Source of the DNA: a virus
Lineage: Duplodnaviria > Caudoviricetes
Strand: one strand, 5' to 3'
Virus record (IMG/VR): IMGVR_UViG_3300032373_000001
DNA length: 64,000 bases
Both the position numbers and the translations under genes were made by a program. Within the stretch, counting starts at the first letter, position 1; each line of letters opens with the position of its first letter. Under the pieces are notes generated by a model. The model was not told the origin of the DNA and made no database searches. It saw only the letters and a list, made by a program, of their open reading frames with translations. Below are positions 6,623 to 50,160 of this stretch, piece by piece.

Positions 6623-6631
6623 GCCCAGACC

Positions 6632-9023: not shown

Positions 9024-9075
9024 CTCAGGGACTCCTTTTATCAGAGCACCCCAAAGGATAGCCAGGATACTGAGG

Positions 9076-9815: not shown

Positions 9816-9856
9816 GGAGGTCTCCTGCAGAACTAAGAGGATAGGGCTCCTACCGC

Positions 9857-11256: not shown

Positions 11257-11273
11257 CTAATCCTCCAAGGGTT

Positions 11274-12620: not shown

Positions 12621-12640
12621 GGGGAACTCCGTGCTTGCCG

Positions 12641-14128: not shown

Positions 14129-14146
14129 GCCCCACCCTACCCTCTC

Positions 14147-14758: not shown

Positions 14759-14769
14759 GTAAGTCTCCG

Positions 14770-15522: not shown

Positions 15523-15665
15523 CAGAACGGATCGGAGACCAGGATGTAAGGGGTGAAGCCCGGGTCATCGCAGAGCACCCCAAGGGGCCGCGACGCAGGA
15601 TAAATCGAAAGGGCAAACCAGAGAACCCGTCGTCCAACCAGCTCACGTCTCGTCGGGCTTCTCAT
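15522..15665 (-). CDS. Possible 47-aa small protein
   Basis: MRSPTRRELVGRRVLWFALSIYPASRPLGVLCDDPGFTPYILVSDPF fills the gap. Its TGA overlaps the primase ATG. Confidence 0.35.
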   Translation of the reverse strand: MRSPTRRELVGRRVLWFALSIYPASRPLGVLCDDPGFTPYILVSDPF

Positions 15666-25435: not shown

Positions 25436-25451
25436 TCAAGCACTCCAACGG

Positions 25452-25484
25452 AAAAGGGGCCAGGAGAACGCACCCCCTGGCCCC
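25452..25484 (-). terminator. Intrinsic terminator after the SSB-like gene
   Basis: The minus strand reads GGGGCCAGG-loop-CCTGGCCCC-TTTT. Confidence 0.65.
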
Positions 25485-25509
25485 GGCATCCCTCGCGGGT
25501 GAGGGATGC

Positions 25510-26298: not shown

Positions 26299-26380
26299 GG
26301 CTTCCTCCTTGTGTTGTTGTGCGCCCGTGGGTGGTAGTGTTGGCGCAGAACCTATTACCCTAACCTTAGACTTGCCAAGC

Positions 26381-27352: not shown

Positions 27353-27358
27353 GTTTCC

Positions 27359-28018
27359 TCACAGGGCTGGGTACAGCACCCGGAAGACATCTCGAACTTG
27401 TATGACATCTTCATAAAGGTGCTCGTATACACCTTCAGCATTACCTTCCAGATAGGCTTGGTAGACGCCCGAGCCCATGACGCCATCCTGCACGGGCAGT
27501 CCCAGGAGGCGGCAGATGGTGTCGAGCTTCTTGAGGCCAAACCCCTTGGGGTAGCCTCGGCTGGAGTCCGGCCACAGTTCCTGGGTGTCGAGGACACGCT
27601 TGTCCCAGGGCTTCTGGAGCGGGGAGCCCAGGAACTTTGCCAAGGCTGGCATCCCAGCCTTGAGCGCGCGGACCTGAAGGAAGGGGAGGTCAAAGCGCCT
27701 GATGTTGTGGCCGACGAACCAGGGGTTCCGGTAGTTCTGGACGTGCCTCCAGAACTCTTCCAGCACCAGCTTTTCCGAAGAGGGGGAACCATCGCCCCAA
27801 CAGAGGACAGGATCCCCAGGCCCGACTGCGAAGCCGATCATCCAGGTGCGACCCAGTGCAGGCCAGAGACTGGTGCTGCGGCGCACCTTGCCCTGGTCCT
27901 CGACCGTCAGGTCGCTCTTCGAAGCAAGGTGCTGCCAGAGGGTATCTTCCTCCTCGGCAGGCAGCGTCTCGATGTCGAGATAGAGGACGGTATCGTTGCG
28001 GGAAGGCTTGGTGCTCAT
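27359..28018 (-). CDS. DEDD (DnaQ/PolB-like) 3'-5' exonuclease
   Basis: LYLDIETL, VGHNIRRFDLPFL, EHLYEDV. Confidence 0.8.
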   Translation of the reverse strand: MSTKPSRNDTVLYLDIETLPAEEEDTLWQHLASKSDLTVEDQGKVRRSTSLWPALGRTWMIGFAVGPGDPVLCWGDGSPSSEKLVLEEFWRHVQNYRNPWFVGHNIRRFDLPFLQVRALKAGMPALAKFLGSPLQKPWDKRVLDTQELWPDSSRGYPKGFGLKKLDTICRLLGLPVQDGVMGSGVYQAYLEGNAEGVYEHLYEDVIQVRDVFRVLYPAL

Positions 28019-36302: not shown

Positions 36303-36947
36303 ATGAGCCTGCTTTTCCATGGCCCCCTGGCGCGAGACGCAGCAGTGGCCGAAGGCCAGAAGCTGGGTCGGCCGCAAGACCCGCTTGGCGACAAAGGACT
36401 CAAGATCGCTGACAGTCGGGCCATCGCCAAGATGGCCCTCCTGCCGGGAATCGGAGACCACCCCCCTTCCTTGGTGGTGGGTCCGCTGGACTCGGCAACG
36501 CCCGAAGCGGCCGATGCCCTCCTCAAGACGATCGAGGAAATCTCCAACAAGCCCCTCCAGCTCATCTTTTGGGCCAATGACATCCGAGGGGTCATCAAGA
36601 CGATCCGGTCTCGATGCTTCACCCGATGGTGCCCCGCGCCCCTCAGTGGGCGCGGCTACCAAGACCCCCTGGCCCACCTAAAGGGACACGCCAACTCTTT
36701 GATGAGGGCTGCCCTGGAAGGCGACGTAGGTCGCCTTCTGTCCTCCTTGGAGGAGGCTGGGGCGGCTACCCCCTCGGTGGTGTTTAAGGGGGTGGAGGAC
36801 CTTGCTGGGAGCTTAGATGGGGCCTCTGCCCTGCGGGCAGTGAAGCTCTGGGAGCGGATCCGTAAGTCTCGCGTCTTGCATCCCCGTGCCAACCTGGGGC
36901 CGGTCAGCTATGCGGCTGTCCTCCTGCCTTTTGAGGAGGACGCATGA
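36303..36947 (+). CDS. holB: DNA polymerase III delta-prime-like clamp-loader subunit
   Basis: EAADALLKTIEE and KTIRSRC (SRC arginine finger). No Walker A. Confidence 0.8.
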   Translation: MSLLFHGPLARDAAVAEGQKLGRPQDPLGDKGLKIADSRAIAKMALLPGIGDHPPSLVVGPLDSATPEAADALLKTIEEISNKPLQLIFWANDIRGVIKTIRSRCFTRWCPAPLSGRGYQDPLAHLKGHANSLMRAALEGDVGRLLSSLEEAGAATPSVVFKGVEDLAGSLDGASALRAVKLWERIRKSRVLHPRANLGPVSYAAVLLPFEEDA

Positions 36948-38062: not shown

Positions 38063-40333
38063 ATGAGCCTCTCCCCTTCGCAGCTTACGGTCCTTCCCGC
38101 CCCGCTGCAGACCCTGGAAGGACCGGAGCGGAAGCGCTCGGTGTTCCCCAACGCCCTGAGCCAGTTCGTCTACACCCGCACCTACCCTCGCTGGAAGGAA
38201 GATGAGGGACGCCGCGAACGCTACGAAGAGTCGGTCTCCCGCTACGTGGGCTTCCTCCGCGAGGAGCGTGAGGTCCCCGAGGATGTCTTGAACGACATCA
38301 AGATTGGCATGCTGGACATGGGCGTGCTCCCCAGCATGCGGGCCTTCTGGTCAGCAGGCGAGGGTGCACGCCGCGACAACACGATGTTCTACAACTGCAG
38401 CTTCATCCCGCTGGACTCGCTCCCGAGCTTCAGTGAGCTGCTGTACATCCTGATGATGGGCACCGGCGTCGGCTACTCGGTTGAGTCCCGCTTCGTGAAC
38501 AACCTCCCAGTCGTCGCTTACCAGAACGGCAAGGTGGTCCGGTACCAGATCCCCGACAGCACCGAGGGGTGGCAGGATTCCCTCCTCGACTGCCTGAAGT
38601 ATCTGTTCCAGGGGTTCGATGTTGATTTCGATTACTCCCTCATCAGGCTGGCGGGTGCTCGGTGCAAGACCAAGGGCGGGCGGGCCAGCGGGCCGGATCC
38701 GCTCCGCAACCTGCTCGACTTCGTCCGGAAGACTCTCAAGGGTGCTCAGGGCCGCAAGCTGACCGACGAAGAGGTCAGCGACATCGCATGCATGATCGGG
38801 GAGATCGTGATGGCAGGGGGCGTCCGTAGGTCGGCCCTCATCTGCTTCTGCGACCCTGAGTCGGACCTGATGCGTCACTACAAGAAGTTCCCCACCTGCA
38901 AGGAGTGCGGGTTCAGCTGGGCCACCCATCTCAGCCGCCATGCCGACACCGGCGAGGCGGACCATGCCGAGAGCCACCTCAGGAAGGAGCACGGCATGAC
39001 CGAGGCAGAGTACCTCGCCAAGCACGGCAAGGACTCCTACCTCGGATTCCCGGCCCTCCGGTTCATGGCCAACATCTCCAGCTTCTGGAGCGGCAAGCCC
39101 TCCGAAGAGGAGTTCTGGGTCGAGTGGACCGCACTCCGCAACTCTGGTTCGGGCGAGCGCGGTTTCTACACGGTGCCTCCCAAGAAGCGGGCAGAGCGCC
39201 GAGGCGAGCTTCGCTCCAACCCCTGCGGCGAAATTCTGCTGCGCTTCGCAGAGAGCACCGACCCCTGGACCGGTGAGGGCGGCGGCGGGCAATTCTGCAA
39301 TTTGAGCGCTGCTGTCATGCGCTCCCACGACACCCGCGCGACCTTTGCCCGGAAGATCCGTACTGCCACCTGGATCGGCGTCATCCAGTCCACGTTCACT
39401 TACTTCCCGCGCCTGCGACCGGCCTGGAAGCAGCACTGCGATGAGGACCGCTTGATCGGGGTGGACATCACGGGCCACTGCGATAACCCTGCCCTGAGCA
39501 ACGACCCCGAGGCGATGCTCTACTTCAACCAGGTCGCCCGCGAGACTGCTGCCGAAGCCGCTGCCCACTTCGGCATCCCGGTCCCGGCAAGCATCACCTG
39601 CGGCAAGCCCAGCGGCAACTCCTCGCAACTGGTCGACTGCGCCAGTGGCTTTCATACCCGCTATGCCCCCTTCTACCTTCGGCGCGTCCGCGTTGCGTCC
39701 ACCGACCCGCTCTTGCAACTGATCCGCGATGAGGGTGTCCCGGTCCACAAGGACAACAAGTACCAGAACACCCCCGACGCTGAGTGCCCCACCTGGGTAG
39801 CCGAGTTCCCGGTCAAGTCCCCGGAGGGTGCGATCACCCGCAGCGATGAGACGGCGCTGGGTCAGCTCAATCGCTATCTCCACATCATGCGCACCTACAT
39901 CGGCGACCGGGGCCACAACCAGTCGGCCACGGTGTACGTCCGCGATGAAGAGTGGGATGCCGTCGGTGAGTGGTTGTACTACCACTGGGAAGAGGTCACC
40001 GGCCTGAGTTTCCTGCCCTACTCCGGTGGCAAGTACCGGCTGGCACCCTACGAAGAAATCACCGAGGACGAGTACAACCGCCTGATGGAGACCTTCCCCT
40101 CCATCGACTGGGACGCGCTCCAGTACTACGAGACCGAGGACATGGGCACGGGCGCGAAGGAGCTGGCCTGCGTTGGCGGGGCATGCGAGATCGACTTCAG
40201 CAAGGATGAGATGGAGCAGTTCGGCAAGGAAGAGGAGGCAGAGAAGAAGCCTTCCTTCGACAGCATCCCCTTCTGCGCCAGCCAAGGCAGCTGCACCTTC
40301 GACTGCAACCAGTGCCTGGGCCGCGACGACTGA
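38063..40333 (+). CDS. nrdJ: Class II (adenosylcobalamin-dependent) ribonucleotide reductase, monomeric type
   Basis: FVYTRTY, YNCSF, GTGVGYSV, GGVRRSALI, NPCGEIL, QFCNL, TCGKPSGNSSQL, HNQSATV, ELACVGGACEI. Confidence 0.93.
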   Translation: MSLSPSQLTVLPAPLQTLEGPERKRSVFPNALSQFVYTRTYPRWKEDEGRRERYEESVSRYVGFLREEREVPEDVLNDIKIGMLDMGVLPSMRAFWSAGEGARRDNTMFYNCSFIPLDSLPSFSELLYILMMGTGVGYSVESRFVNNLPVVAYQNGKVVRYQIPDSTEGWQDSLLDCLKYLFQGFDVDFDYSLIRLAGARCKTKGGRASGPDPLRNLLDFVRKTLKGAQGRKLTDEEVSDIACMIGEIVMAGGVRRSALICFCDPESDLMRHYKKFPTCKECGFSWATHLSRHADTGEADHAESHLRKEHGMTEAEYLAKHGKDSYLGFPALRFMANISSFWSGKPSEEEFWVEWTALRNSGSGERGFYTVPPKKRAERRGELRSNPCGEILLRFAESTDPWTGEGGGGQFCNLSAAVMRSHDTRATFARKIRTATWIGVIQSTFTYFPRLRPAWKQHCDEDRLIGVDITGHCDNPALSNDPEAMLYFNQVARETAAEAAAHFGIPVPASITCGKPSGNSSQLVDCASGFHTRYAPFYLRRVRVASTDPLLQLIRDEGVPVHKDNKYQNTPDAECPTWVAEFPVKSPEGAITRSDETALGQLNRYLHIMRTYIGDRGHNQSATVYVRDEEWDAVGEWLYYHWEEVTGLSFLPYSGGKYRLAPYEEITEDEYNRLMETFPSIDWDALQYYETEDMGTGAKELACVGGACEIDFSKDEMEQFGKEEEAEKKPSFDSIPFCASQGSCTFDCNQCLGRDD

Positions 40334-40352
40334 CGGGGTCCTTTTCGTGGTC

Positions 40353-40382
40353 AAAGAGGGGGCCATAGGCCCCCTCTTTTAA
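40353..40382 (+). terminator. Intrinsic terminator after nrdJ (bidirectional-looking)
   Basis: aaagagggggcc-ata-ggccccctctttt. Confidence 0.85.
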
Positions 40383-40546
40383 TTCTACCTTCCCCGCTTC
40401 GGGGGTATGGTTCAGTTGAGGACCGTACCGCCCTCTGAATAGGAGAGCGAGGCCCGCTGAAGCTCATTCAGCTGCACCTTCCACCAGGAAGCGACCCCCG
40501 GCCCTCAAGTCGCGAGATGTACGAACATAGCACAGGAAGGTGCAGC

Positions 40547-42190
40547 GTGAGTAAGAGCGTGAAGATGGTCGCCGTGATCGGCGACGAAGAGGTCGTGGTC
40601 GGTCGGTGCCACCCAGGCCAAGCGAGGATCCTCCGTCAGGCGGGCATGGCCGACTGGAAGAAGAACCGACTGCTCTTGAAGAGCGCCCCTGGTGCGGATG
40701 CGGTACAGGACATCGAGAAGATCCTGGGCCTGGATTCCAACCTTGAGCGGCAGAAGATGCTCAAGGACCAGGCCCTCAAGAAGGTTCTCGGGGAGAACCT
40801 GGACGAGTCCTGGACTCCCGACCGCTGGAGGCAAGCGGGTCCGTTCGGAAAGGCCGATGACCTCAGCAGCAAGTGGACGGAGTCCCTGAAGGACATCCTC
40901 GGGAATGCGGACGCAGAGGAGGTCATCGACGTCTTCTCGGGGGCAGCGCGGCGCCAGCTTGGTCCCACTCATCGCTGTGACACTCTCCTCGCGTGGGGGA
41001 TGCGCTGCCTGGAGCTCCGTGCGGCAGGTCACGACCTGTATGCCTACGATGACCCGAGGAGGCTGGCCCTGGGCTTCGTGGACGCCAGCGATGGGAACAC
41101 CTGCTACGAGTTCTCGGTCCGTCGCCTGAGATCGACCCCCGACAGCGTCTTTGAGACGCTGGGGACCACCCGGAAGCAGCTTGCCTCCATAGAGGGGCGC
41201 TTGGAGTTCATCCGGGGAGGCAAGGTTCCTGAGTTCGAAGAACCTACGGACGAAGAGTGTGAGCAGCTCCAGGATATCTTCCACAGAGGGGTTGGGCACC
41301 GACTCCGCAAGTTCCAAGATAAGGAGTATCTGGACGAGATCATGCCCTCCACCGCCGAGACGGTCCGTGCTGCGTTGGGGCTCAAGTCGCGGGCGGATCA
41401 GCTCATCGCGTGGACTCACGTCGTCCAAGAGCAGCTGGGGAAGAGGACGGTCTCCCAAGAGGTGTTCCTCCAAGATTTCTTCCAGGAGTGCCGCCGGTCA
41501 GGCCACACTACGGAGATGCTCCTTGAGGCAGTGGCGTTTGCCCTTCAGGGTCGTCCGGTCTTGATCCGTGCCCACGCCTACACGCAGAGTGTTGCTGTAG
41601 TCCGGAGGGGCCTGGAAATGATCCGGCAGGTCAACCCGGCATGGGAAGGCTTCTTCGAAGAGTGGCGTCCTGAGAAGGCAGGGATGAAGCCTGGCGGAAT
41701 GGCTCCTCGGGTCTTCTGGGACAAGCAACACACCGGCGCTTCCGGGGATCCTCTGAACAGCCATGCGGGTCTGCGCTTCCGCGCTACGCGCAGCAACCCC
41801 AGCGAGGCCATTCGCGATTTCCGTTCCTACTTGGCGGGGCTGAGGGGTCCGAACTACACCTCGGTTCCCTCAAGCGGGAACCCGGACCTCACCCTCGAAG
41901 AGGTGCAAGAGGTCTTCGTGCAAGGTCCTAATGAGGACGACCACTACCTCCGAATGTGTCACGCACTGGTCCACCTGAGCCAAGGCGGAGTGGTCTGGTT
42001 CTTCTCTCTGGGGTCGCACCAGCTGCGATTGCTCTATCCGCTGCGGAAACAGGCCATCCGCATGGGACTCCCGCTGGAGATCTACGGCGGAGAGTCGGCC
42101 CCCGACAAGGACCTGAGCAAGATCCGAGTCTGGAGGACAGAAGAGCCCGCGGAAGGCATCCTGTTCCTGGACCACCCCTTCGAGGAATGA
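40547..42190 (+). CDS. Hypothetical protein with an RRXRR/PLMP-like N-terminal domain
   Basis: VIGDEEVVVGRCHPGQARILRQAGMADWKK. GTG start with AGGAAGG upstream. Confidence 0.75.
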   Translation: MSKSVKMVAVIGDEEVVVGRCHPGQARILRQAGMADWKKNRLLLKSAPGADAVQDIEKILGLDSNLERQKMLKDQALKKVLGENLDESWTPDRWRQAGPFGKADDLSSKWTESLKDILGNADAEEVIDVFSGAARRQLGPTHRCDTLLAWGMRCLELRAAGHDLYAYDDPRRLALGFVDASDGNTCYEFSVRRLRSTPDSVFETLGTTRKQLASIEGRLEFIRGGKVPEFEEPTDEECEQLQDIFHRGVGHRLRKFQDKEYLDEIMPSTAETVRAALGLKSRADQLIAWTHVVQEQLGKRTVSQEVFLQDFFQECRRSGHTTEMLLEAVAFALQGRPVLIRAHAYTQSVAVVRRGLEMIRQVNPAWEGFFEEWRPEKAGMKPGGMAPRVFWDKQHTGASGDPLNSHAGLRFRATRSNPSEAIRDFRSYLAGLRGPNYTSVPSSGNPDLTLEEVQEVFVQGPNEDDHYLRMCHALVHLSQGGVVWFFSLGSHQLRLLYPLRKQAIRMGLPLEIYGGESAPDKDLSKIRVWRTEEPAEGILFLDHPFEE

Positions 42191-42205
42191 CGGTAGAGCA
42201 GGCTC

Positions 42206-42559
42206 ATGAAAGAAGTGAACCTGCTGATCCGAGTACTCCTGAATGAGCAGGGGGCGGTGAAAAGCTCGCACCGCCCCCTCACCTCTCAAGACGCCGAGGA
42301 AGCCAAGACCTGGCCCAGCGGCGGCTTGGTGCACCTGAGCCAAGCCCTGTTCGTGGAGGCCCTGCGTCGGGATGCGTACCTCATGGTGGTCTCGATGCTG
42401 AGCCAGGGGACGAAGCACGAAGACCTGACGCCTCAGCAGGTAGCGGAGACTGTTCGGGTCCACTGGATGGAGCAGCTGGGCCGCTTCGGGGAGCAGGCGG
42501 CAGTCGAGGCTTTACAGAATACTTCTCCTATCGAGGAGCCCGGGCAAGGAGGTTCCTGA
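42206..42559 (+). CDS. Hypothetical protein
   Basis: 117-aa ORF coupled to the next gene. Confidence 0.7.
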   Translation: MKEVNLLIRVLLNEQGAVKSSHRPLTSQDAEEAKTWPSGGLVHLSQALFVEALRRDAYLMVVSMLSQGTKHEDLTPQQVAETVRVHWMEQLGRFGEQAAVEALQNTSPIEEPGQGGS

Positions 42560-43044
42560 TGAAAAAGCTCTCTTCGCTCACCCGCCTCAAGCTCCTGAAG
42601 ATGGCCCAGGCCATGCCCAAGGGCGACGAGACCCGTCGCGCCATCCTCAGCGCACTCAAGAAGGTCGTCCCCCAGCGCGACAAGACTGCGTCTGGGAAGC
42701 TGAGGGGCAAGATCACCTTGATCATCAACGGTCGGTACTCGAATATTGCCCGCGTCCGCAACTTCGACATGAAAGACTGGCCCAAGTTCGTCGAGATGAT
42801 GAACGACGCCTATATGTGGTTCGACTCCAACGACATCGACTCGATCGACCGGGAGGTTCAGGAACTGAAGGATCAGATCAAGGAGCTCGAGAAGCAAAAG
42901 GCAGGCGGCAAGAAGTACGTGGACTTCTTCAAGAAGTGGCGCCTCGACCCCACAGACTTCCTGGGCGGTATCGACATTCAGGGTGAGGACTCCGAAGGCA
43001 CCCTCTGGGAAGAAGAGATGGGCGACTGGTACAAGCAGGCCTGA
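42559..43044 (+). CDS. Hypothetical protein with a basic helical leader (possible virion protein)
   Basis: MKKLSSLTRLKLLKMAQAMPKGDETRRAILSALKK...KTASG. CCTATC 26 nt upstream. Confidence 0.75.
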   Translation: MKKLSSLTRLKLLKMAQAMPKGDETRRAILSALKKVVPQRDKTASGKLRGKITLIINGRYSNIARVRNFDMKDWPKFVEMMNDAYMWFDSNDIDSIDREVQELKDQIKELEKQKAGGKKYVDFFKKWRLDPTDFLGGIDIQGEDSEGTLWEEEMGDWYKQA

Positions 43045-43047
43045 GCC

Positions 43048-44211
43048 CTATTCGACTCCGAAGTCGTCCATGAAAGAAGCATCCTTGGCCTGTTCGCTGA
43101 GGTGCTTCTTTTTGCGGTATGCGTGCTGCTCTTGGGGCGAGCGATGCTTGGCCCGCCACTTCTGGTACTTGGCGAACTCCTCCTCCTGAGTGCCCGCTCC
43201 CGCCAGGTCTTCTCGGAGATACATGACGAGCGAGATGCGCTCGTAGTTCTCTTCGCCTTCCACTGCGGGCTCGATCGGGGTGTTGCCGTGGAAGTGGTGC
43301 GCGACATCCATCCCGACGAAGTCCCCCTGCCGGCAGTCGAAGGCCACCCGGAACTGGGGGAAGACTGTGTAGCCGCCCTTGTAGGTGTGCTCCCCAGCTT
43401 CCAGGACACTGAAGTTTTCCAGCCCCGCCTTGAAGTCCCCCGCGTCCTGGTGACAGGCGGTCTGGAAGTTCTTGTTGACGGTGATGGTCGAGTACACGGT
43501 GCCCGGAACAACCCACTCCCGCTTGTCGAGCTCGTGCTGCTCCACGAATTCCCGCTGGGTCTGGTAGCGGTCGGGGTGTAGCTCTTCGAAGAGCTCGGTG
43601 CACCGTCGGAGGAACGGCCACGCCTGCTTGAACTTGTCCCAGTTGTCGCGGGTGTATGCGGTCTTGCGGACGTAGGGGTTCCGGGCGGTCGGGGGGAAGA
43701 AGCCTGCAATTCCGCCCATGGTCATGTTGGCTTCGACTGTGTCGGAGATGAGCCCATCCTTGGTGACGTACTTGGCGCGAGTGCCGTCGCCCACAGGGAT
43801 GACACGTGCAACGTCTCGACCGAAGCGGGTGGGGTCCACCTTGCCTCCGGCCACCCCCCGGTTCTTGGAAGGGCGGGCAGCCCCCTTCAGCCCGATATAG
43901 GCCCCCTCACACTCTTCCGGAGTGAAGACCCCCTTGCGGAAGACCAGAAACAACCGCTCGGCCAACCCCTCTTCCTCGGTCTTCTCGTCGCCGAACATGT
44001 CGAACACGCTCTCTTGGTGCGGCGCGTAGACGTTGGTGTCGCCGTTGACCAGGACCTCGAAGGAGTCCACGTCGATGAACTCTGCCTTGAGCTTGGCGGT
44101 CTCCTCGTCTGTGAGGAAGCCCTCTCCCGTCAGTTCTACGCAGAGGACCCCGTCCTCTCGGGTCCACTCGTACCAGACCAGTCCGTTGCTCTCTTTCCGC
44201 TGTTTGTCCAC
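43048..44211 (-). CDS. TET/JBP-family 2-oxoglutarate/Fe(II) dioxygenase
   Basis: YSTITVNKNFQTACHQDAGD (HxD), FPQFRVAFDCRQGDFVGMD, HGNT (distal His), ERISLVMYLRE (2OG Arg). GTG at 44211 with AGGAGG. Confidence 0.85.
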   Translation of the reverse strand: MDKQRKESNGLVWYEWTREDGVLCVELTGEGFLTDEETAKLKAEFIDVDSFEVLVNGDTNVYAPHQESVFDMFGDEKTEEEGLAERLFLVFRKGVFTPEECEGAYIGLKGAARPSKNRGVAGGKVDPTRFGRDVARVIPVGDGTRAKYVTKDGLISDTVEANMTMGGIAGFFPPTARNPYVRKTAYTRDNWDKFKQAWPFLRRCTELFEELHPDRYQTQREFVEQHELDKREWVVPGTVYSTITVNKNFQTACHQDAGDFKAGLENFSVLEAGEHTYKGGYTVFPQFRVAFDCRQGDFVGMDVAHHFHGNTPIEPAVEGEENYERISLVMYLREDLAGAGTQEEEFAKYQKWRAKHRSPQEQHAYRKKKHLSEQAKDASFMDDFGVE

Positions 44212-44302
44212 CCAGCACCTCCTGTTCACTCGACTAAAAACGAAGCCGACCCCTCTACTTACCGTGAGAGGGGTCGGCAGGCCACAACCTTAATGTTCGA
44301 GG

Positions 44303-45325
44303 TTACCCGCCGAACATGTCGAAGGCGTCGTCGGGTCGGGGGGCGATTTCCACGGGCTTGCCTTGGATGCGTCGGAGGTGCGGGAAGATGTCCTTGGAGG
44401 AGACCCCAGCGATGTCCTCGATGTCGATCAGCTCTCGCAGCTGGTTGTGGCGCGCTGCCACAACCTTGCGCGGGTTCTTGTCGAAGTTGGTCCACTGGTA
44501 GAGCTGCTCGGTCTCGAACTCGTAAGGTTCGAACTCCGGGAATTTGAACGGGCCTTCCTCTCGGAGGAACAACTCCGGGGACTTCTGCTCAGCGCTCAAG
44601 GCATGCCTCAAGAAGGCGCGGCACCAGCGGATGGCGGAGAGCATCTCGTCCATGTTCAGGGTGCCAGGGAAATGGCGGAACTCGATGGTCTCGGTCTCTT
44701 CCCACATCTGGCGGAGGTTGATGCCGGCACGTGGGCTGAAGTACCACATGCGACCCTTCTCGGTCGCCGGTGCGTGCTCCTCGTAGAAGCCTTGGGTGGT
44801 CGTGGCTGCGAGCATCGCCGCAACTCGTTTCTTGGGCATCTTGTACTGGTGGGACTTGTGCCGCCTCTTTTCCCGCTTCCGTTCCCACTCATACACCTCG
44901 GGAGGCAGGCTGGGGTCCGTCTTGGGGATGCGTTCCACGATGCTGAAGGCGTCTTGCTGGTGCTGGTCGATGTACCGCAGCAACCTCTTGCAGCCCTCCA
45001 GGTCGTCCTTCAGCCCCGGAACCCGCACGTGGATGTGAAGGTTGGAGCGGTAGTTGACGATGGGTGCAGGACCCCCCTTCGGGAGGGCAGCGTTGATTCG
45101 AGCGATGTGCTCGACCTGCTGTTCCGGGGTGGAGGTCGGCCTCGTGTTGATCTCACCCCCGTACCGATACAGCTTGCCGACAGGGTCGTTGGCGATGCCC
45201 GTTGAAGAAACGCAGGTGTTGTCCTTGTCGTTCCACTGAGCGCCGTCGGGAAGCTCAGCGAAGCGGAAGCAGTTGCCGTACTCCAGCTCTGCACCGTAGG
45301 TGAAGCTGTCTACATCGTATTTCAT
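44303..45325 (-). CDS. Putative amidoligase (COOH-NH2 ligase, glutamine-synthetase-like fold)
   Basis: TYGAELEYG, GGEINTRPT, NLHIHV, TIEFRHFPGT. Coupled to the GATase gene. Confidence 0.75.
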   Translation of the reverse strand: MKYDVDSFTYGAELEYGNCFRFAELPDGAQWNDKDNTCVSSTGIANDPVGKLYRYGGEINTRPTSTPEQQVEHIARINAALPKGGPAPIVNYRSNLHIHVRVPGLKDDLEGCKRLLRYIDQHQQDAFSIVERIPKTDPSLPPEVYEWERKREKRRHKSHQYKMPKKRVAAMLAATTTQGFYEEHAPATEKGRMWYFSPRAGINLRQMWEETETIEFRHFPGTLNMDEMLSAIRWCRAFLRHALSAEQKSPELFLREEGPFKFPEFEPYEFETEQLYQWTNFDKNPRKVVAARHNQLRELIDIEDIAGVSSKDIFPHLRRIQGKPVEIAPRPDDAFDMFGG

Positions 45326-46032
45326 GGGGTCGGGGAAGCCTTGGGCTGGAGGTCCTGTTGGGACTGAGGAGAGCCGACGCTCAGCAGGCTGAGGACCCTG
45401 GCTCCGGGGGTGAGCTGCGTCTTGTAGTGCATCTTGAGCTGCATGGGGTCGTTCTCGACTCCTGACCTCAACGCGATGTCCCGCGTTGAAGTGATCAGTT
45501 GACCGTTGTTTACCTTGGTGAGGTAAAGGGGGCGCTTGCCGTTGCGGTAGGCGATCATCGTCCGGTTGGCGTGAAGCTCTACCGCCGCGATGCTGGAGTC
45601 CAGCCAATCCTGGAACGGGTTGCCTCGCTTCCGAAGGAGGAGTTCTGTGTCGTTCTTGGTCTCGCAGGCGACCCCGTAGAGACCCTCCCAGTTCTCGGGG
45701 AGCTCCTGGGAGATGACCCCGTTGTGGACCAGCGCGGTGTCCTCAGTAGAGAGCGGCTGGTTGTACTCCAGGTCGCTGGTCGAGTACCTGCAGTGGCCGA
45801 GGAGGTACAGGTTCCCGTCTTCGTTGAGGTACTGCGAGGGGTCCTGGAGGTGACGCTCAACGAAGACCTCAGCGGGAACAGGTTCCTTGATCGTGTGCAG
45901 GTTCCCCCCTTGGAGCCATGTCATGCCCGTGGCATGCTTGCCACGGATTTGGCTCTGAAGGAACACTTCTACCAGCAGGTCAAGCTCTGCCGGCTTGGGG
46001 GCCGCGAAGTATGCCCCGATTACTCCACACAT
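45322..46032 (-). CDS. Class II (Ntn) glutamine amidotransferase
   Basis: N-terminal MCGVIG, RGKHATG, GHCRYST, NQP, VHNGVI, NDTE. Confidence 0.85.
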   Translation of the reverse strand: MCGVIGAYFAAPKPAELDLLVEVFLQSQIRGKHATGMTWLQGGNLHTIKEPVPAEVFVERHLQDPSQYLNEDGNLYLLGHCRYSTSDLEYNQPLSTEDTALVHNGVISQELPENWEGLYGVACETKNDTELLLRKRGNPFQDWLDSSIAAVELHANRTMIAYRNGKRPLYLTKVNNGQLITSTRDIALRSGVENDPMQLKMHYKTQLTPGARVLSLLSVGSPQSQQDLQPKASPTP

Positions 46033-47510
46033 CACTCACCCCCAAAGAGGTCGAACACATCATCGCGGGTGTCGGCCTTGATCGTATCGCCTTTGAACAT
46101 CCACCCCATCCGGGCAAACTTCCCTGAGTCCAGGAAGGTGTAGCCTGCGGGATTGATGCCGGTGCGGTGCGTCAGCCGGTAGTCCAGCTGCTCAGTGCGG
46201 GACTGCCAGAGCACGTCCCAGTCGATCCCATGCCAGCCGTCGCCCTCGCACCGTTGAATCTCCCCCGCCTGCCGGTCCAGATAGTATCCGAGGTAGCGAC
46301 TGTGCTTCGGTCGCCAGATCTTCTTGAACGAGCAGAGGCACGTCTCCATGCTGAAGAAGTCGGCGTCCTTCTTCAGGCGGGGGAAGCGGGCGTGCACCTC
46401 TGCCAAGATGGAGGCCCCCTCCTCTTCCAGCCGCTGGTACTCTCCCGCAGTCAGCTTAGTGTCGACCTCGGACTCCCGCCCCAGTGCCCAGAGCAGTCCG
46501 TTCCGGTGAGAGCGGCTGCCGCTGTAGTCCTTCAACATGAGGGAGGTGGCTTCCACCGGAACACCTGCCGTGTGCTTCAGGTGCTGGAGGAAGAACCACG
46601 TAGAATAGCGACCAAACTTGTAGAGCCCGCTGAGCTGCCCCCACAGGTTCTCGAAGGTTTCTTCCTCGGTCTCCCCGTAGAACTGAGCGAAGCGGTCGTG
46701 CTGGAGCCCGTTGCCCACCCACTCAGCATAGCTGGCGTACATGGCCGGCAGGTGACCCTTGTTCCATTTGGTGTCGGTCTGGTAGCGGAGCCTGGAGTAG
46801 TTGGCATTGTTCCAGAGCGTCAGCCGGTCGTGCGTTGCCAGCTCGAAGTCGGGGAACTCGTTGATGATGATCCAGCTCGTCGGGAGGTAGTAGGTGTTCC
46901 CGTACAGCCAGCTCAGCCACAGTCTCTGTTCCGAGTTGTGCTCGTACCGCTCGTGGAGGTAGTTGGTCATCCACAGGGCCGGGTCACAGTCCCGGAATTG
47001 AAGGGACCATGCATACCACCGGATGAAGGCTTCCCTCCGGTTCTCCGTAAGCCTGTAGTCCCCTGGGGGAGGGGCATGGGTAGGCAGGCCGCATCGGAAC
47101 AGGCGCATGGCGGAGCGGATCTGGTCGACCACTCGCTTGTGGTCCTTGGTACCCTTGGAGTAGTTGGGGTCCGGAATCCGCGTCTCACCGATGAGGTCGC
47201 TGACCCGAACAGACTTCCCGAAGACCTCGTCGCCGAACTGCTCTCGCAGCCGACGCTCGTTGCCGTTGTCCATGTAGAAGATGACGTCGGCCCAGTCGAT
47301 GAGGTCTTGGCGGACGGCGGTGGACCGGATGCCCAGACCATCCAGGCCCCGGCTCCTCAAGGCTGTGCGCATCTTCTTCGTGGTCCGGACCCCGTCCTTG
47401 CCTTTGAGGGCAGCGGAGCGGATGTCCCAGTGAGGCTCCATTGCTTGGAGCATGATGTGCCCGGCCGGGGAACGGTTGATGTTCCCGTGGCACAAAAACA
47501 AGACGCGCAC
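46032..47510 (-). CDS. Fusion: LMW phosphotyrosine-phosphatase-like domain + alpha-glutamyl/putrescinyl-thymine pyrophosphorylase (clade-3-like amino acid:DNA transferase)
   Basis: N-terminal LFLCHGNINRS (CX5R), WADVIFYMD, IPDP. C-terminal RREAFIRWY, DCDP, WLYGNTY, RYQTDTKW, KFGRYSTWFFLQHL, ETCLCSFKK, YLGYYLDRQ. One uninterrupted ORF. Confidence 0.8.
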   Translation of the reverse strand: MRVLFLCHGNINRSPAGHIMLQAMEPHWDIRSAALKGKDGVRTTKKMRTALRSRGLDGLGIRSTAVRQDLIDWADVIFYMDNGNERRLREQFGDEVFGKSVRVSDLIGETRIPDPNYSKGTKDHKRVVDQIRSAMRLFRCGLPTHAPPPGDYRLTENRREAFIRWYAWSLQFRDCDPALWMTNYLHERYEHNSEQRLWLSWLYGNTYYLPTSWIIINEFPDFELATHDRLTLWNNANYSRLRYQTDTKWNKGHLPAMYASYAEWVGNGLQHDRFAQFYGETEEETFENLWGQLSGLYKFGRYSTWFFLQHLKHTAGVPVEATSLMLKDYSGSRSHRNGLLWALGRESEVDTKLTAGEYQRLEEEGASILAEVHARFPRLKKDADFFSMETCLCSFKKIWRPKHSRYLGYYLDRQAGEIQRCEGDGWHGIDWDVLWQSRTEQLDYRLTHRTGINPAGYTFLDSGKFARMGWMFKGDTIKADTRDDVFDLFGGE

Positions 47511-47519
47511 GGGCGCCTC

Positions 47520-48137
47520 CTACTCGAAGGAGTGGATGAAGTCCAGGATCTGCTGTGCCACCTCGGATGGGGTGACGCCCTCCACCGTGATGTTGAGCAG
47601 TCGGTTCTCTTCGTCCGTCGGATCGCCCCCGTCGCCGAACATGTCGAAGAGGGAGTTGTCCTGGGGCAGGAAGCGGTCAGCGAAGCGTCGGGCCTTGCTG
47701 ACGCGCCCCTTGAGCCAAGTGGGGTTTTGGTCGCTGCCCCGCTCCTTGCGGCGCGCATCCATCACTTCGTCGCTGGCCCCCAGGTGAGCGCAGAGCACCT
47801 TGACGCCTCGGTCTTCCAGGAACTTCTTCGCATTGGCGTGACTGAAGCGGTCGCCGTCGAACACCGTGTACTTGTAGGTGGCGTCGGGGAGGATCTCCTC
47901 CTCCCAGTGCTCCACGCAGGGGACCCAGCCATCGTTGGGGACCGTGTCTGCGCCGTCGAAGGTTCCGGTCCCGTAGTGGCCTGCGAACACGTAGGGGCCT
48001 CCATTCTGAAGGCACCACTTGATCTTCTTGGTCTCGTCGTGGGTGAAGTTGGTGTAGTCCTTCCCGAGGATGATACGGGCGGTGGTTGTTTTGCCGACGC
48101 CTGGAGGGCCGACGAGGAACAGCGCGATGTGGGCCAT
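47520..48137 (-). CDS. P-loop kinase of hypermodification loci (5-hydroxymethyluracil-DNA-kinase-like)
   Basis: GPPGVGKT, GHYGTGTFDGADT, FDGDRF, RRKERGSDQNPTWLKGR. Directly upstream of the aGPT gene. Confidence 0.8.
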   Translation of the reverse strand: MAHIALFLVGPPGVGKTTTARIILGKDYTNFTHDETKKIKWCLQNGGPYVFAGHYGTGTFDGADTVPNDGWVPCVEHWEEEILPDATYKYTVFDGDRFSHANAKKFLEDRGVKVLCAHLGASDEVMDARRKERGSDQNPTWLKGRVSKARRFADRFLPQDNSLFDMFGDGGDPTDEENRLLNITVEGVTPSEVAQQILDFIHSFE

Positions 48138-48140
48138 TTT

Positions 48141-48683
48141 CTATCCTTCCTGGGCGATCTTTACGAGCCAAGGATACAGGTTCTTGTGGTTGGGTTCGGC
48201 GTAGAGGAAGCCCCTCCCGCCTGCGTCGTGGAACTCTCGGGTGTTCCGGTCGTAGTCATCCACGAGGTAGCTCTCGGGGGTCGCGTAGAACTGCTTCTGG
48301 CGAGAGGTCGCTACGCAGTTGAACCTCCGCAGCGCTTTCAGGTCGATCAAGTCCCCGTAGTGTTTGCGGAGGAACTCTACCTTCCCGGCGTGAGCCGCCT
48401 CTCCCATGTCCCCATCGTAGGAGCCCAGCGAGGTGAGGATCTCCACGTTCCAGCCGTTCTCGTGAGCTGCCTCCATCAGGACCTTCCAGTCCTTCAGGTG
48501 GAGGGGTGCGGCTTCGCTGAAGAACTTCCTCTTGCCTACCGTCTTCCACGCCTTCACGTAGTGGGCGTGCTTTTCTCGGTCGGGGAGATGGCCGTAGGAG
48601 CCAGGCTCCCATCCGAGGAGCTGATCGCATCGTCCGACGAAGTCCACGAGGACCCCGTCCATGTCAAGGTACAAGGTCTTCAT
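48141..48683 (-). CDS. HAD-superfamily 5'(3')-deoxyribonucleotidase
   Basis: LYLDMDGVLVDF, ILTS, GK, LVDDY...N. Confidence 0.8.
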   Translation of the reverse strand: MKTLYLDMDGVLVDFVGRCDQLLGWEPGSYGHLPDREKHAHYVKAWKTVGKRKFFSEAAPLHLKDWKVLMEAAHENGWNVEILTSLGSYDGDMGEAAHAGKVEFLRKHYGDLIDLKALRRFNCVATSRQKQFYATPESYLVDDYDRNTREFHDAGGRGFLYAEPNHKNLYPWLVKIAQEG

Positions 48684-48690
48684 AGGCTTG

Positions 48691-48927
48691 TTACTCCGTG
48701 TCGACGGTCAACTGGGTCTCGACCCAGCAGGTCGCGCCGCAGCTCAGGGGGTTGCCTGGACGGTACACTACCCTGGCGACCTCTTTTCCCGAAGAGTCTC
48801 GGAGGATGGCGGTGGAGGCACGGCGATTGCGGCTGTAGTCCTTCACCGTCAAGGGGGCTTCTTGCTCTCCGCACTTCTTGTTGCGCTTGATGATGTGCTG
48901 ATTGACGTGGATGCGCGTGGTCTTCAA
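48691..48927 (-). CDS. Small conserved-looking phage protein
   Basis: IHVNQHIIKRN...PLTVK...VVYRPGNPLSCGATCWVET. The TTG start overlaps the upstream stop. Confidence 0.65.
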   Translation of the reverse strand: MKTTRIHVNQHIIKRNKKCGEQEAPLTVKDYSRNRRASTAILRDSSGKEVARVVYRPGNPLSCGATCWVETQLTVDTE

Positions 48928-49181
48928 GGCTCGTTCCCCAAGGTCAGCCCCGCCTTCCGCCGCTTCTCGTTGTAGTGGGCGTTCTTGTTGCTGCACCGCC
49001 GGGAGCAGTACTTGCTCTTCTGGCGGCTTGGCTTGTGACAATCCATCCAGGAGCACTCTTTGGCTCCTGGATGGATTGTACCGCTTGCGGGCTTCTTGGT
49101 GTTGGTCGGGCCTCGCATTCCCATCAGGAATTCCGCGATGGATGCCATGCGCTTGAGGTCTTCTTGGGTCGTGTCTGCCAT
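48924..49181 (-). CDS. Small CGNR-like zinc-finger protein
   Basis: CSWMDC...YCSRRCSNK followed by a basic tail. Confidence 0.6.
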   Translation of the reverse strand: MADTTQEDLKRMASIAEFLMGMRGPTNTKKPASGTIHPGAKECSWMDCHKPSRQKSKYCSRRCSNKNAHYNEKRRKAGLTLGNEP

Positions 49182-49221
49182 TGGCGTAGGAATTCCTCCT
49201 GAGTGAAGGCAGTGACCCTTA

Positions 49222-49725
49222 TTACCGGCCCCGGTTCTTCCTCTTCTTGCCGTTGATGCGGGTGTCTTCGTCGGCTTGTTGGATGTCGACATCCAACCCG
49301 GTGACTTGGGACCGTAAAGATTTGCCTACCCGGACATCCACCCCGCCGACTTCGGAGTCAATCAGCTCCCCCACCTCGATGCCCAGGCCGAAGATCTTGC
49401 AGTTGGTGGCCTTAGCGATCTTGATGTCAGTGCCCGTGATGGTCTGGTCTCGAACCACTCCGAATTCCTGCCCTCGGAACAGCGATCCGAATCCCGTCTT
49501 CTTTCTCGCAGGCTCCTTTGGCGGAGGCTTCTGCCAGCCCGCTGCTGGCTTCGAGTGGTCGTAGGGCTCGAAGGTGTAGCCTGTGGTCCCGCACCCGCAG
49601 ACCATCATAGACCACCCATTCTCCAGCGCCTGGGTTCCCCACTGCGGTGCAGGTCCCCGATTACAACGGGAACACTCTACAGCCTGCTTGAAGTCCACGG
49701 GGTGTTCGATCTTGGTCGGGTTCAT
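49222..49725 (-). CDS. Hypothetical protein with a Cys-rich N-terminus
   Basis: CSRC...CGC, then beta-helix-like I/V/G repeats. Confidence 0.65.
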   Translation of the reverse strand: MNPTKIEHPVDFKQAVECSRCNRGPAPQWGTQALENGWSMMVCGCGTTGYTFEPYDHSKPAAGWQKPPPKEPARKKTGFGSLFRGQEFGVVRDQTITGTDIKIAKATNCKIFGLGIEVGELIDSEVGGVDVRVGKSLRSQVTGLDVDIQQADEDTRINGKKRKNRGR

Positions 49726-49749
49726 GGATCCTCCGACCAAGATTACGTC

Positions 49750-50160
49750 CTACTCCCAAGTTCCTTTCATGAAGTCGTACAGCATGTTGAAGTGGGCCAG
49801 CCCCTCGCGCATCCAGAGGTGAAGCCGGAACCACTCATTGGAGGAGCGCAGGAGGAAGGCTGCCTGATCCCGTGTGGGGAAGGCGGCGAACCCGTAACGG
49901 TTCGGGTTCGCGCAGACGATCGCGAGCGCCCGGTACAGCGCATCCCCGAGATCGATGTCTCCGGGGATGTACTCCAGTCCTTGCATCCAGGGGGAACCTG
50001 CGGGCTTGCACGGCAGCCGGGTCCCCAGAATCTTGCACTCTGGGTAGAAGGTCAGGTCCCCCTGAAGGAGTGCGGGGTAGTTTGGGTCCCCGGCAGCGGC
50101 CGGGATTTCAAGGAAGTACGGGTTAAATTGCATCAGACTCTTCAGCAGAGGGTTCTTCAC
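49750..50160 (-). CDS. Hypothetical protein
   Basis: 136-aa ORF in the operon. Confidence 0.65.
   Translation of the reverse strand: MKNPLLKSLMQFNPYFLEIPAAAGDPNYPALLQGDLTFYPECKILGTRLPCKPAGSPWMQGLEYIPGDIDLGDALYRALAIVCANPNRYGFAAFPTRDQAAFLLRSSNEWFRLHLWMREGLAHFNMLYDFMKGTWE

Follow-up and report, generated by a model that had tools for sequence, protein, structure and literature searches.

A recurrent FD[LM]FG-type peptide on DNA-modifying enzymes of a giant marine phage as a candidate sliding-clamp docking motif

Why do five unrelated DNA-modifying enzymes of one phage carry nearly the same short peptide? The window analysed here, the whole stretch under study, comprises 64,000 nucleotides of a virus of the Caudoviricetes (IMG/VR record IMGVR_UViG_3300032373_000001). 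It contains a hypermodification cluster. According to their Pfam domains, the consecutive genes at 43048-48137 encode TET/JBP, P-loop kinase 3 and ADDT/aGPT-Pplase proteins, together with tailoring enzymes. By gene content the cluster meets the thymidine hypermodification type (5mYOX, 5-HMUDK and AADT), a family described previously (PMC8989533, PMC13229309); the chemistry of its product can only be inferred. The enzymes considered, including one methyltransferase outside the cluster, are as follows.

43048-44229, minus strand: TET/JBP-type 5-methylpyrimidine dioxygenase, 393 aa (Pfam Tet_JBP, 5.2e-20), aligned with its orthologues; it has two candidate docking peptides.
44303-45334, minus strand: amidoligase-like enzyme (Pfam Amidoligase_2, 4.7e-5), with a likely start near 45334.
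45322-46035, minus strand: glutamine amidotransferase without the motif (Pfam GATase_6, 6e-10).
46032-47510, minus strand: fusion of an LMW phosphatase and an amino-acid:DNA transferase (ADDT/aGPT-Pplase), 492 aa (Pfam LMWPc, 1.3e-13; ADDT, 3.3e-23).
47520-48137, minus strand: P-loop kinase of the 5-hmU DNA kinase type, 205 aa (Pfam Ploopntkinase3, 2e-5; AF2 mean pLDDT 89.9).
48141-48683, minus strand: HAD-like 5'-3' deoxyribonucleotidase without the motif (phrog_2643, 2e-24).
20992-22239, minus strand: N6/N4 DNA methyltransferase, 415 aa, within the replication/recombination module (Pfam N6_N4_Mtase, 2.5e-33).

The first-pass annotation had reported an [FL]D[LM]FG peptide in five of these enzymes, and a six-frame scan recovered all five copies exactly. 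The Pfam domains bear out the five enzyme identities and the claim that the carriers have unrelated folds, with the qualification that the kinase match (24.6 bits) falls below the Pfam cut-off of 27 bits. The copies, together with a variant in the TET tail, are listed below.

43990-44004, minus strand: internal motif FDMFG of the TET enzyme, residues 76-80 (QESVFDMFGDEK, in the context SVFDMFGDEKTEEE).
43057-43074, minus strand: C-terminal variant FMDDFG of the TET enzyme (tail SFMDDFGVE), from the sequence.
44309-44323, minus strand: C-terminal motif FDMFG of the amidoligase (DDAFDMFGG), from the six-frame scan.
46041-46055, minus strand: C-terminal motif FDLFG of the transferase (DDVFDLFGGE), from the six-frame scan.
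47634-47648, minus strand: internal motif FDMFG of the kinase, residues 164-168, in an acidic insert (DNSLFDMFGDGG, NSLFDMFGDGGDP).
21001-21015, minus strand: C-terminal motif LDLFG of the methyltransferase (DALDLFGSP), from the six-frame scan.
708-722, minus strand: sixth strict match, LDLFG, at residue 29 of a YfbR-like HD protein (IEMLDLFGMARA; gene 234-806, weak Pfam YfbR-like match).

As had been proposed, the five enzyme copies lie outside the catalytic cores: three are 1-3 residues from a C-terminus and two are in flexible acidic linkers. The tails of the GATase and HAD enzymes lack the motif, again as claimed, and serve as internal negatives. The tail motif is likewise absent from the GATase orthologues in the related locus L066 and the T4-like loci.

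Chance or composition was considered as the source of this recurrence. An acidic, hydrophobic tail might arise easily in a GC-rich genome without any common function, and the motif-coding stretches merely use preferred codons. However, six matches were counted in the 71 called proteins (19,190 aa), with 0.054 expected (Poisson 3e-11), and none of 300 per-protein shuffles gave more than one. The P value is optimistic, since the pattern was defined after being seen. All six matches are on the minus strand. The match at 708-722, which is absent from the first-pass list, has hydrophobic, non-acidic flanks and is inferred to sit near the start of the HD fold. It is probably a chance or structural match in a folded helix and not a docking peptide, which leaves some room for coincidence. 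A looser pattern, [FLIMVA][DE][LMI]F[GS], is about 15 times denser at the C-terminal end than elsewhere. A repeated DNA cassette was ruled out as the source, because the motif-coding segments have only 15-16 nt in common, the amount expected from codon bias, and are embedded in unrelated flanks.

Conservation in homologues provides an independent test of the motif, and this test was passed. Among 32 close kinase homologues, M166 and F167 are invariant (32/32) and D165 is kept in 30, amid acidic flanks that vary and contain indels. These homologues are not near-identical strains, as they share 51-74% identity with the window kinase. Below 50% identity the insert is absent, as it also is in T4-like and distant kinases. 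In the AF2 model of the kinase the motif forms a 4-residue turn in a coil, where model confidence is lowest within the C-terminal half (block 161-170, average pLDDT 68). An invariant motif within drifting flanks is the signature of a functional short linear motif.

The TET enzyme has kept its internal motif in position as well. The peptide occupies a 6-residue insertion relative to the T4-like orthologues and is followed by EKTEEE; the corresponding segments are SVFDMFS in L066, SVLDLFS in L071 and LLDLFGE in P0255. The tail SFMDDFGVE matches, column for column, the T4-like TET tails ([ST]L[ED]xFF[GA]) and those of L066 (DFMSEFGG) and L071 (EFMQEFGGS). The amidoligase orthologue in L066 ends in VLAMFSGG, and P0122, the only other fusion homologue among those listed, ends in TIFSMFGV. 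The N6_N4 methyltransferases of three relatives end in IFDLFGG (L014), VFDLFGDS (L026) and AFDLFSGG (L029).

Related clusters of different composition repeat the distribution. In L066 (GC 50%) the motif is found on the kinase, transferase, amidoligase, a 368-aa protein and TET; in L071 (GC 56%), on the kinase, a 265-aa protein, a PLP enzyme (at the N-terminus), a radical SAM enzyme and TET. In pathways of this sort, polymeric DNA is the substrate of the PLP, radical SAM, kinase and AADT enzymes (PMC8989533). The Asp decarboxylase, GlnS-like enzyme and dCMP deaminase of L071 lack the motif. The L071 contig is 222,049 bp long, and the longest contig listed for the clamp homologue P0030 has the same length. 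Not every enzyme is tagged: the motif is missing from the L071 ADDT and from the T4-like kinases, and the near-complete relatives G001 and G002 have very few such tails, and both observations count against docking. Taken on the sequence evidence, the peptide is under selection. Its retention in every close kinase homologue and its recurrence at GC 50% and 56% make a purely compositional origin barely credible.

A selected peptide could also be a turnover or sorting signal, such as a protease degron or a packaging or compartment address, setting the timing or place of the enzymes. The three C-terminal copies are hydrophobic, like many degrons, and a giant phage with a genome of ~400 kb might sort its proteins. 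The best conserved copies are, however, the internal ones in the kinase and TET, an N-terminal copy occurs in one relative, and no protease or sorting partner is indicated. The polymerase tails described below correspond to a clamp epitope and not to a degron (PMC2988020). A signal of this kind is considered very unlikely.

The form of the peptide points to sliding clamps. The bacterial clamp-binding consensus is QL[SD]LF, or Q-phi-x-[L/M]-[F/L], with Asp preferred at position 3; the motifs have acidic flanks and occur at termini or in internal loops (PMC11139829). The FDMF, FDLF and LDLF of the five carriers fit positions 2-5, so the published consensus agrees with the comparison to QL[SD]LF-type motifs made at first pass. 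The internal site of E. coli Pol III alpha is IGQADMFGV (PMC11139829). Placement in a disordered terminus or exposed loop is met by the three C-terminal copies, the kinase coil linker and the TET insertion. Gln at position 1 is absent from all five carriers (V, A, V, L, A), and the kinase homologues have L, M, I or A. This Gln accounts for a large share of the binding strength towards E. coli beta and is important but not essential, as in delta (AMSLF) (PMC11139829).

The window also encodes a candidate partner and its loader.

17628-18800, minus strand: phage beta-type sliding clamp (DnaN family), 390 aa, the proposed docking partner (phrog_947, 2e-24).
11274-12620, minus strand: DnaX-like clamp-loader ATPase (Pfam DNA_pol3_delta2, 3.8e-25; DNAX_ATPase_lid).
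36303-36947, plus strand: second clamp-loader-like (delta-prime-like) subunit (Pfam DNA_pol3_delta2, 3e-7; phrog_5846, 5e-4).

The single clamp sequence had no match in Pfam. Its family profile matched PDB beta clamps over positions 2-351 (E 2e-10), and the top 50 Foldseek hits of its AF2 model (pLDDT 91.9) were all bacterial beta clamps (TM 0.72-0.84, E ~1e-21). The earlier designation of this ORF as beta-like is thus confirmed: by profile and predicted fold it is a beta clamp, with ring formation and loading inferred. The segment WATDRRAL was among the most conserved stretches, from which the related-locus search patterns were built. In the alignment it falls on the TDGHRL pocket loop of bacterial beta, whose pocket residues are known (PMC11139829); T171, R173, R174 and A175 vary little or not at all.

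The proposed co-folding check gave a mixed outcome. The last 40 residues of the transferase with the clamp dimer scored 0.60, above the best of three controls (0.22). The result was graded as weak support and no contacts were reported. In calibration, 58 of the 80 solved complexes reached the mark, as did 2 of the 110 mismatched pairs, and only 7 of the 80 solved complexes scored 0.60 or less. Contact agreement between runs was at least 59%, and partner pLDDT was at least 43. The score may stem from solved beta-peptide complexes that the model had learned in training.

The weakness of this result leaves space for a different hub, such as an SSB-like protein, a recombinase, or an unrecognised scaffold of the modification complex that replaces ParB-like activators. 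Clamp binding has not been demonstrated, and no motif-bearing canonical clamp client was found in the lineage. Pfam gave no DnaE or PolB match for five relatives, and the motif is lacking in the G002 PolA; because the replicative polymerase of the lineage was not identified, a canonical-client positive control is missing. Direction of phage 5mYOX enzymes by ParB-type activators has been documented (PMC13229309), and no ParB-like gene was detectable beside the window TET. Several conserved proteins of unknown function in the replication module have conserved tails of their own. On the other side stand the close fit to the beta-clamp consensus and the E. coli alpha site (PMC11139829), and the identity of the equivalent T4-like tail with the clamp-binding tail of the polymerase (PMC2988020). 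A pathway-specific scaffold is further opposed by the presence of the motif, in relatives, on methyltransferases and small proteins outside the hypermodification cluster. Another hub is therefore possible but unlikely.

The T4-like marine phages provide the strongest support for clamp docking, by analogy from an independent lineage with another clamp type. In their loci (L001-L007), an L[DE]xF ending is found on 11 of the 46 ORFs, with 0.1 expected, and the carriers are exactly the family B polymerase, TET, ADDT and GNAT. The gp43-like polymerases end in [ST]LEDFF[VG], TET in SLEEFFA, GNAT in TLEEFMV and ADDT in GLEKFF. The acidic-hydrophobic C-termini of gp43, gp33 and gp55 are established, interchangeable gp45-binding epitopes (PMC2988020), and T4 DNA ligase has an internal LDFLF loop (PMC6212786). 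The ADDT domain of the window transferase is 62-70% identical to the T4-like ADDTs, and each has a tail suiting the resident clamp type. GL[ED]xF lies within the last eight residues in all but two of 118 listed T4-like ADDT homologue clusters.

The first-pass annotation had also named four looser variants in other replication proteins. All four are present in the sequence, and two are conserved in relatives.

19079-19099, minus strand: tail GFVDFSL of the Cas4-like PD-(D/E)XK nuclease (gene 19076-20023; Pfam PDDEXK_1), a possible six-residue variant.
14153-14170, minus strand: tail VFDLTL (SSVFDLTLD) of the PhageMetallopep-like protein (gene 14147-14758; Pfam PhageMetallopep, 4e-10), a possible six-residue variant.

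The Cas4-like tail GFxD[LF]xL is kept in 12/12 sequences (the window and 11 relatives), and in 9/10 relatives the metallopeptidase-like protein has VE[EQD][MLI]F[GAS] with an acidic tail near the C-terminus. The other two are not of the clamp type: conservation of the RecA-like tail was not found in relatives, and the tail of the 26381 ORF belongs to another conserved tail class.

Taken together, the first-pass interpretation is supported, while physical binding, the choice between phage and host clamp, and replication-coupled modification remain inferred. The preferred reading, with a probability of roughly 0.7, is that phi-[DS]-[LM]-F-[GS], usually acidic-flanked, docks DNA-acting modification enzymes onto a beta-type sliding clamp; binding, pocket, clamp choice and effect on modification are inferences. 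The partner is most likely the phage's own DnaN homologue, although there are no binding data and the host clamp is not excluded. This clamp would be loaded by the DnaX-like loader. Since clamps stay behind the fork on the newly made duplex, tethering would concentrate the enzymes on nascent DNA. The tethered set would comprise the thymine/5-methylpyrimidine dioxygenase, the 5-hmU-phosphorylating kinase, the amino-acid:DNA transferase, the amidoligase and the methyltransferase, which might alternate on the two pockets of the ring as on a clamp "tool-belt". Enzymes acting only on small molecules (GATase, nucleotidase) would need no tag. In this giant marine phage, chemical DNA protection is probably coupled to the clamp that remains on freshly replicated DNA. 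The kind of motif is known already; the novelty lies in the new clients and in the pathway-wide use.

A broader proposal, on which opinion is evenly balanced, is that sliding clamps are a general platform for post-replicative phage hypermodification, and that genes moving between phages are re-fitted with the peptide of the new phage (FD[LM]FG for beta-type clamps, [ST]LE[DE]FF for gp45-type clamps). If so, the window TET, with its inserted internal motif and T4-like-homologous tail, would record such a re-fitting. The ParB-less clade C1 thymine dioxygenases are inactive when expressed alone in E. coli (PMC13229309). The proposal would explain this inactivity, and these enzymes should switch on when co-expressed with cognate clamp and loader and free of C-terminal tags.

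Several known systems invite comparison. The motifs of Pol II, Pol III alpha, Pol IV, Pol V, Hda, MutS and delta likewise have phi-D-[LM]-F followed by Gly, Asp at position 3 and acidic flanks. Such bacterial motifs, like the window-type motif, may be C-terminal, N-terminal or placed in an internal loop, and the window genome also encodes a beta-type clamp. The window motif differs in lacking Gln at position 1 and in having no binding data. The carriers are polymerases and repair proteins in bacteria, whereas in the window they are a dioxygenase, a base kinase, an amino-acid:DNA transferase, an amidoligase and a methyltransferase. The gp45 epitopes of T4 and RB69 similarly place one peptide on unrelated proteins, at a terminus or in an inserted loop (PMC2988020, PMC6212786), and the T4-like marine relatives have the gp45-type tail on TET, ADDT and GNAT as well as on gp43. 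These phages use a gp45 trimer with [ST]LE[DE]FF, whereas the window has a dimeric beta-type clamp with FD[LM]FG.

T4 alpha-glucosyltransferase is likewise a clamp-binding hypermodification enzyme. It co-purifies with gp45, an interaction confirmed in a later study, and is proposed to modify DNA during replication (PMC13216743, citing Sommer 2004). Only one enzyme is involved there, and the passages of PMC13216743 considered describe no linear motif, whereas the window has a multi-step pathway and a methyltransferase with a defined motif. The same study attributes the level of alpha-glucosylation mostly to promoter strength and not to gp45 binding (PMC13216743, 2026); by analogy, the benefit of tethering may be small. 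The ParB-dependent phage thymine dioxygenases are also TET/JBP enzymes accompanied by kinase, GATase and AADT genes, and these 5mYOX seemingly depend on a DNA-bound accessory protein for activity on duplex DNA (PMC13229309). They have a C-terminal extension domain, whereas a clamp and a short peptide are proposed for the window. In eukaryotes, DNMT1 binds PCNA through a PIP box, and modification follows replication. This is again a DNA-modifying enzyme on a sliding clamp, which differs in the clamp, the motif, the involvement of one enzyme only, and the purpose, maintenance methylation versus anti-restriction hypermodification.

The [FL]D[LM]FG peptide, which the first-pass annotation had read in five DNA-modifying enzymes, was recovered in all five by a six-frame scan, every copy on the minus strand. 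The Pfam identities of the carriers agree with its claim of five unrelated folds:

43048-44229, minus strand, TET/JBP-type dioxygenase (TET; Tet_JBP)
44303-45334, minus strand, amidoligase (Amidoligase_2)
46032-47510, minus strand, transferase (LMWPc fused to ADDT/aGPT-Pplase; ADDT, amino-acid:DNA transferase)
47520-48137, minus strand, kinase (Ploopntkinase3; 24.6 bits, below the Pfam 27-bit cut-off)
20992-22239, minus strand, methyltransferase (N6_N4_Mtase)

Three copies finish 1-3 residues ahead of the stop codon, and two more are found in acidic linkers. No copy is present in the GATase (45322-46035) or in the HAD-like deoxyribonucleotidase (48141-48683), as had been noted. Among the 71 proteins called by third-position GC (19,190 aa in total), six matches were observed vs 0.054 expected (Poisson 3e-11), and per-protein shuffles gave one match at most. 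The sixth match (708-722, minus strand) falls in a non-acidic context of an HD-domain protein (residue 29); it was set aside as a chance match, probably structural and not a docking peptide. A repeated DNA cassette was ruled out as the source of the motif, since the flanks of the coding segments are unrelated and the segments are no more similar than codon bias predicts.

The motif is also conserved in homologues. In 32 kinase homologue clusters (51-74% identity to the kinase of the window), M166 and F167 are unchanged in all 32, and 30 retain D165; positions 159-162 and 169-176 are variable, with indels. The motif-bearing insert is absent from kinase homologues below 50% identity and from the kinases of T4-like phages. 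AlphaFold modelling of the kinase (pLDDT 89.9) renders the motif as a four-residue turn within a coil linker, and this stretch is the least confident part of the C-terminal half. The clamp-adjoining methyltransferases of three relatives end in IFDLFGG, VFDLFGDS, and AFDLFSGG. In the related locus L066 (GC 50%; transferase 55% identical), the peptide is kept at the same places: GLFDMFGG in the kinase, SVFDMFS in the TET, and the C-termini TIFSMFGV in the transferase and VLAMFSGG in the amidoligase. A further 368-aa protein of this locus ends in LFGELFGG; the GATase does not carry the peptide.

A second related locus, L071, lies on a 222,049-bp contig and encodes a different tailoring pathway. 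In its cluster (5927-16169), which probably makes a different thymidine adduct, genes for a kinase and an ADDT are grouped with genes for a PLP enzyme, a radical SAM enzyme, an aspartate decarboxylase, and a glutamine-synthetase-like protein. A Cas12f/TnpB-like gene lies directly upstream. The peptide is carried by the kinase, a 265-aa protein, the PLP enzyme (at the N-terminus), the radical SAM enzyme (terminal SVLNLFGEASE), and the TET. It is not carried by the aspartate decarboxylase, the glutamine-synthetase-like enzyme, or the dCMP deaminase. In such pathways, polymeric DNA is the substrate of the kinase, amino-acid:DNA transferase, PLP, and radical SAM enzymes (PMC8989533), so the division between carriers and non-carriers tracks DNA contact. 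This agrees with the proposal of the first-pass annotation, with the L071 ADDT as an exception. Two 174-aa proteins of unknown function in related phage records (L030:2042-2566 and G001 219696-220220) carry the peptide at the N-terminus (QPSLFDLFGA and MFDMLGMFGS), as E. coli Hda does.

The proposed docking partner, the ORF at 17628-18800, matches phrog_947, annotated as DNA polymerase processivity factor. A profile of 40 homologues matches beta clamps in the PDB along the whole length (E 2e-10), and the AlphaFold model (pLDDT 91.9) aligns structurally with bacterial beta clamps (TM 0.72-0.84). The segment WATDRRAL, among the most conserved stretches chosen for the related-locus search patterns, aligns in the profile alignment with the bacterial beta TDGHRL loop, which is part of the peptide-binding pocket (pocket residues: PMC11139829). 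The clamp gene was located on a contig of 410,989 bp, and contigs of 200-350 kb carry its relatives; the lineage is therefore one of giant marine phages. A clamp-profile search of the genome contigs gave no match, and neither did a megablast search of window 40000-50000 against GenBank phages. A low-confidence loop near the C-terminus of the clamp (residues 366-376; window 17673-17705) reads EDGEELFGNKF, and its E-L-F-G peptide resembles the tails of the proposed clients. This peptide is not conserved among relatives, and may thus be chance or a lineage-specific self-ligand.

Bacterial beta-clamp ligands follow QL(S/D)LF, or Q-phi-x-[L/M]-[F/L], with a slight Asp preference at position 3 and mostly acidic flanks, and occur C-terminally, N-terminally, or within internal loops (PMC11139829). 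The phage motif matches positions 2-5 and the Gly that follows, and Gln is never found at position 1. This Gln is important but not essential, and the internal clamp site of E. coli Pol III alpha is IGQADMFGV (PMC11139829). When the clamp dimer was co-folded with the final 40 residues of the transferase, the score was 0.60 vs 0.22 for the best control. Among 80 solved complexes, 58 attained the co-fold mark and only 7 scored 0.60 or lower; the mark was also attained by 2 of 110 mismatched pairs. Contact agreement between runs was at least 59% and partner pLDDT at least 43; no contacts were reported. The prediction may simply reproduce beta-peptide complexes that have already been solved. This result was graded as weak support only, and is accordingly reported with its control and counts and not as proof.

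The giant-phage lineage (G001-G005; window 24785-28018) encodes a clamp, a loader, an exonuclease subunit, a RecD2-like helicase, and a Toprim protein. The window genes considered here are:

11274-12620, DnaX-like loader
36303-36947, second loader-like gene
14147-14758, minus strand, PhageMetallopep-like protein, flanked by the Toprim protein and the clamp loader
19076-20023, minus strand, Cas4-like PD-(D/E)XK nuclease, adjoining the clamp
24785-25435, 216-aa ORF, 62-67% identity across relatives, no family assignment
25510-26400, minus strand, conserved 296-aa ORF, function unknown
26381-27352, minus strand, conserved 323-aa ORF, function unknown
27359-28018, polymerase exonuclease-type subunit

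The looser variants listed by the first-pass annotation fared unevenly in relatives. In 9 of 10 relatives, the PhageMetallopep-like protein has VE[EQD][MLI]F[GAS] with acidic residues near the C-terminus. GFxD[LF]xL forms the end of the Cas4-like nuclease in the window and all 11 relatives (12/12); judged by its residues alone, this tail looks like a six-residue variant of the clamp motif. These two tails come closest to a positive control. Eukaryotic SPRTN binds PCNA, and a clamp-tethered metalloprotease, if the PhageMetallopep-like protein docks, would recall it. In the RecA-like protein, LDGMFDE did not hold up as a conserved motif: its relatives have unrelated tails. The LDGLFS end of the 26381-27352 ORF was reassigned, together with the neighbouring 25510-26400 ORF, to another tail class. 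The 296-aa ORF ends in VDxLLDD[VI][LI] in the window and in 7 of the 7 relatives found, and the 323-aa ORF has related acidic-hydrophobic ends (LLDDLDI, LLGDLDL); relatives for this class were L017, L022, L024, L028, L029, L033, G001, and G002. This class may be an SSB-kind hub tail. An L066 ORF ends in LLDGVL.

The replicative polymerase was not identified. No Pfam match to DnaE, PolB, or divergent PolB was found in five related phage records, and no polymerase was found in the 20 kb past the window end. PolA is present as one full gene without the motif in G002, and as a fragment-like match in G001. These two genomes (297 and 288 kb, respectively) lack TET and have few such tails. Candidates for the polymerase are the conserved ORFs of unknown function that follow the exonuclease subunit; a protein atlas search with 26381-27352 gave no lead.

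A parallel case was found in uncultured T4-like marine phages, where a very abundant family is 62-70% identical to the ADDT domain of the window. The lineages are otherwise unrelated (GC 62% in the window phage vs about 40%), which suggests gene transfer. The LMW phosphatase fusion at the N-terminus recurs only in P0122 among the best 120 of 1305 ADDT homologue clusters. A tblastn search of cultured phages with the T4-like ADDT gave only matches below 60% identity. The T4-like gene order is family B polymerase, Dam-type methylase, TET, GATase, GNAT, ADDT, and kinase. The polymerase ends in [ST]LEDFF[VG], the TET in SLEEFFA, LDSFFG, or LDEFFG, the GNAT in TLEEFMV, and the ADDT in GLEKFF. An L[DE]xF end is present in 11 of 46 distinct T4-like ORFs vs 0.1 expected, and these 11 are exactly the polymerase, TET, GNAT, and ADDT families. 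GL[ED]xF occurs in the last eight residues of all but two of the 118 T4-like ADDT clusters listed; among the 150 most similar TET cluster representatives, about 20 have a tail of this kind. In the TET alignment, the internal motif of the window lies in a six-residue insertion absent from the T4-like orthologues, and its C-terminal SFMDDFGVE aligns with the T4-like [ST]L[ED]xFF tail. Another recurrent terminal peptide, G[DE]PL[YWF] (GDPLY, GGPLWDD, ETPLFDQD), ends about 15-18 of the 150 nearest TET representatives (P0247-P0366), mostly short proteins of about 300 aa.

Phage DNA hypermodification takes place after replication and is carried out on the polymer by several enzymes in succession. 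The motif observation is real and selected. Docking on the clamp is the best supported explanation (probability roughly 0.7); binding and functional coupling have not been shown. A shared clamp-docking peptide would be a concrete, testable answer to how these enzymes reach nascent DNA ahead of host nucleases and coordinate their steps. For metagenomic enzymes that show no apparent activity in E. coli, the cognate clamp and loader may be required, and C-terminal His tags (as in PMC8256090) would mask the tail. Some phage thymine dioxygenases require a ParB-like activator, and the inactivity of ParB-less clade C1 enzymes in E. coli was left unexplained (PMC13229309); no ParB-like gene was detectable next to the window TET. 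The tail type could be used to predict the clamp partner of a phage enzyme, and such tails could help to pick out new DNA-acting enzymes from ORFs of unknown function. The peptides might be natural ligands of phage clamps, and perhaps of host clamps.

The acidic-hydrophobic C-termini of T4/RB69 gp43, gp33, and gp55 are freely exchangeable gp45-binding epitopes (PMC2988020). The T4 motif is LDFLF, and it may also be located in an inserted loop, as in ligase (PMC6212786). No recognisable common motif was seen in the tails of gp33 and gp55 from a characterised hypermodifying phage, Salmonella phage ViI (first 100 kb of FQ312032). The T4-like tails are of the gp45-epitope kind, which suggests that two lineages with different clamp types have each fitted their own peptide to orthologous enzymes. 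The thymidine and cytosine hypermodification literature searched does not mention clamp-binding motifs on these enzyme families. The only published precedent found is the T4 alpha-glucosyltransferase with gp45, proposed in 2004 and confirmed by pull-down (PMC13216743); the same paper attributes the alpha-glucosylation level mostly to promoter strength, not clamp binding. On the clamp-docking reading, the phage peptide represents a motif of established type on new client classes, with pathway-wide use.
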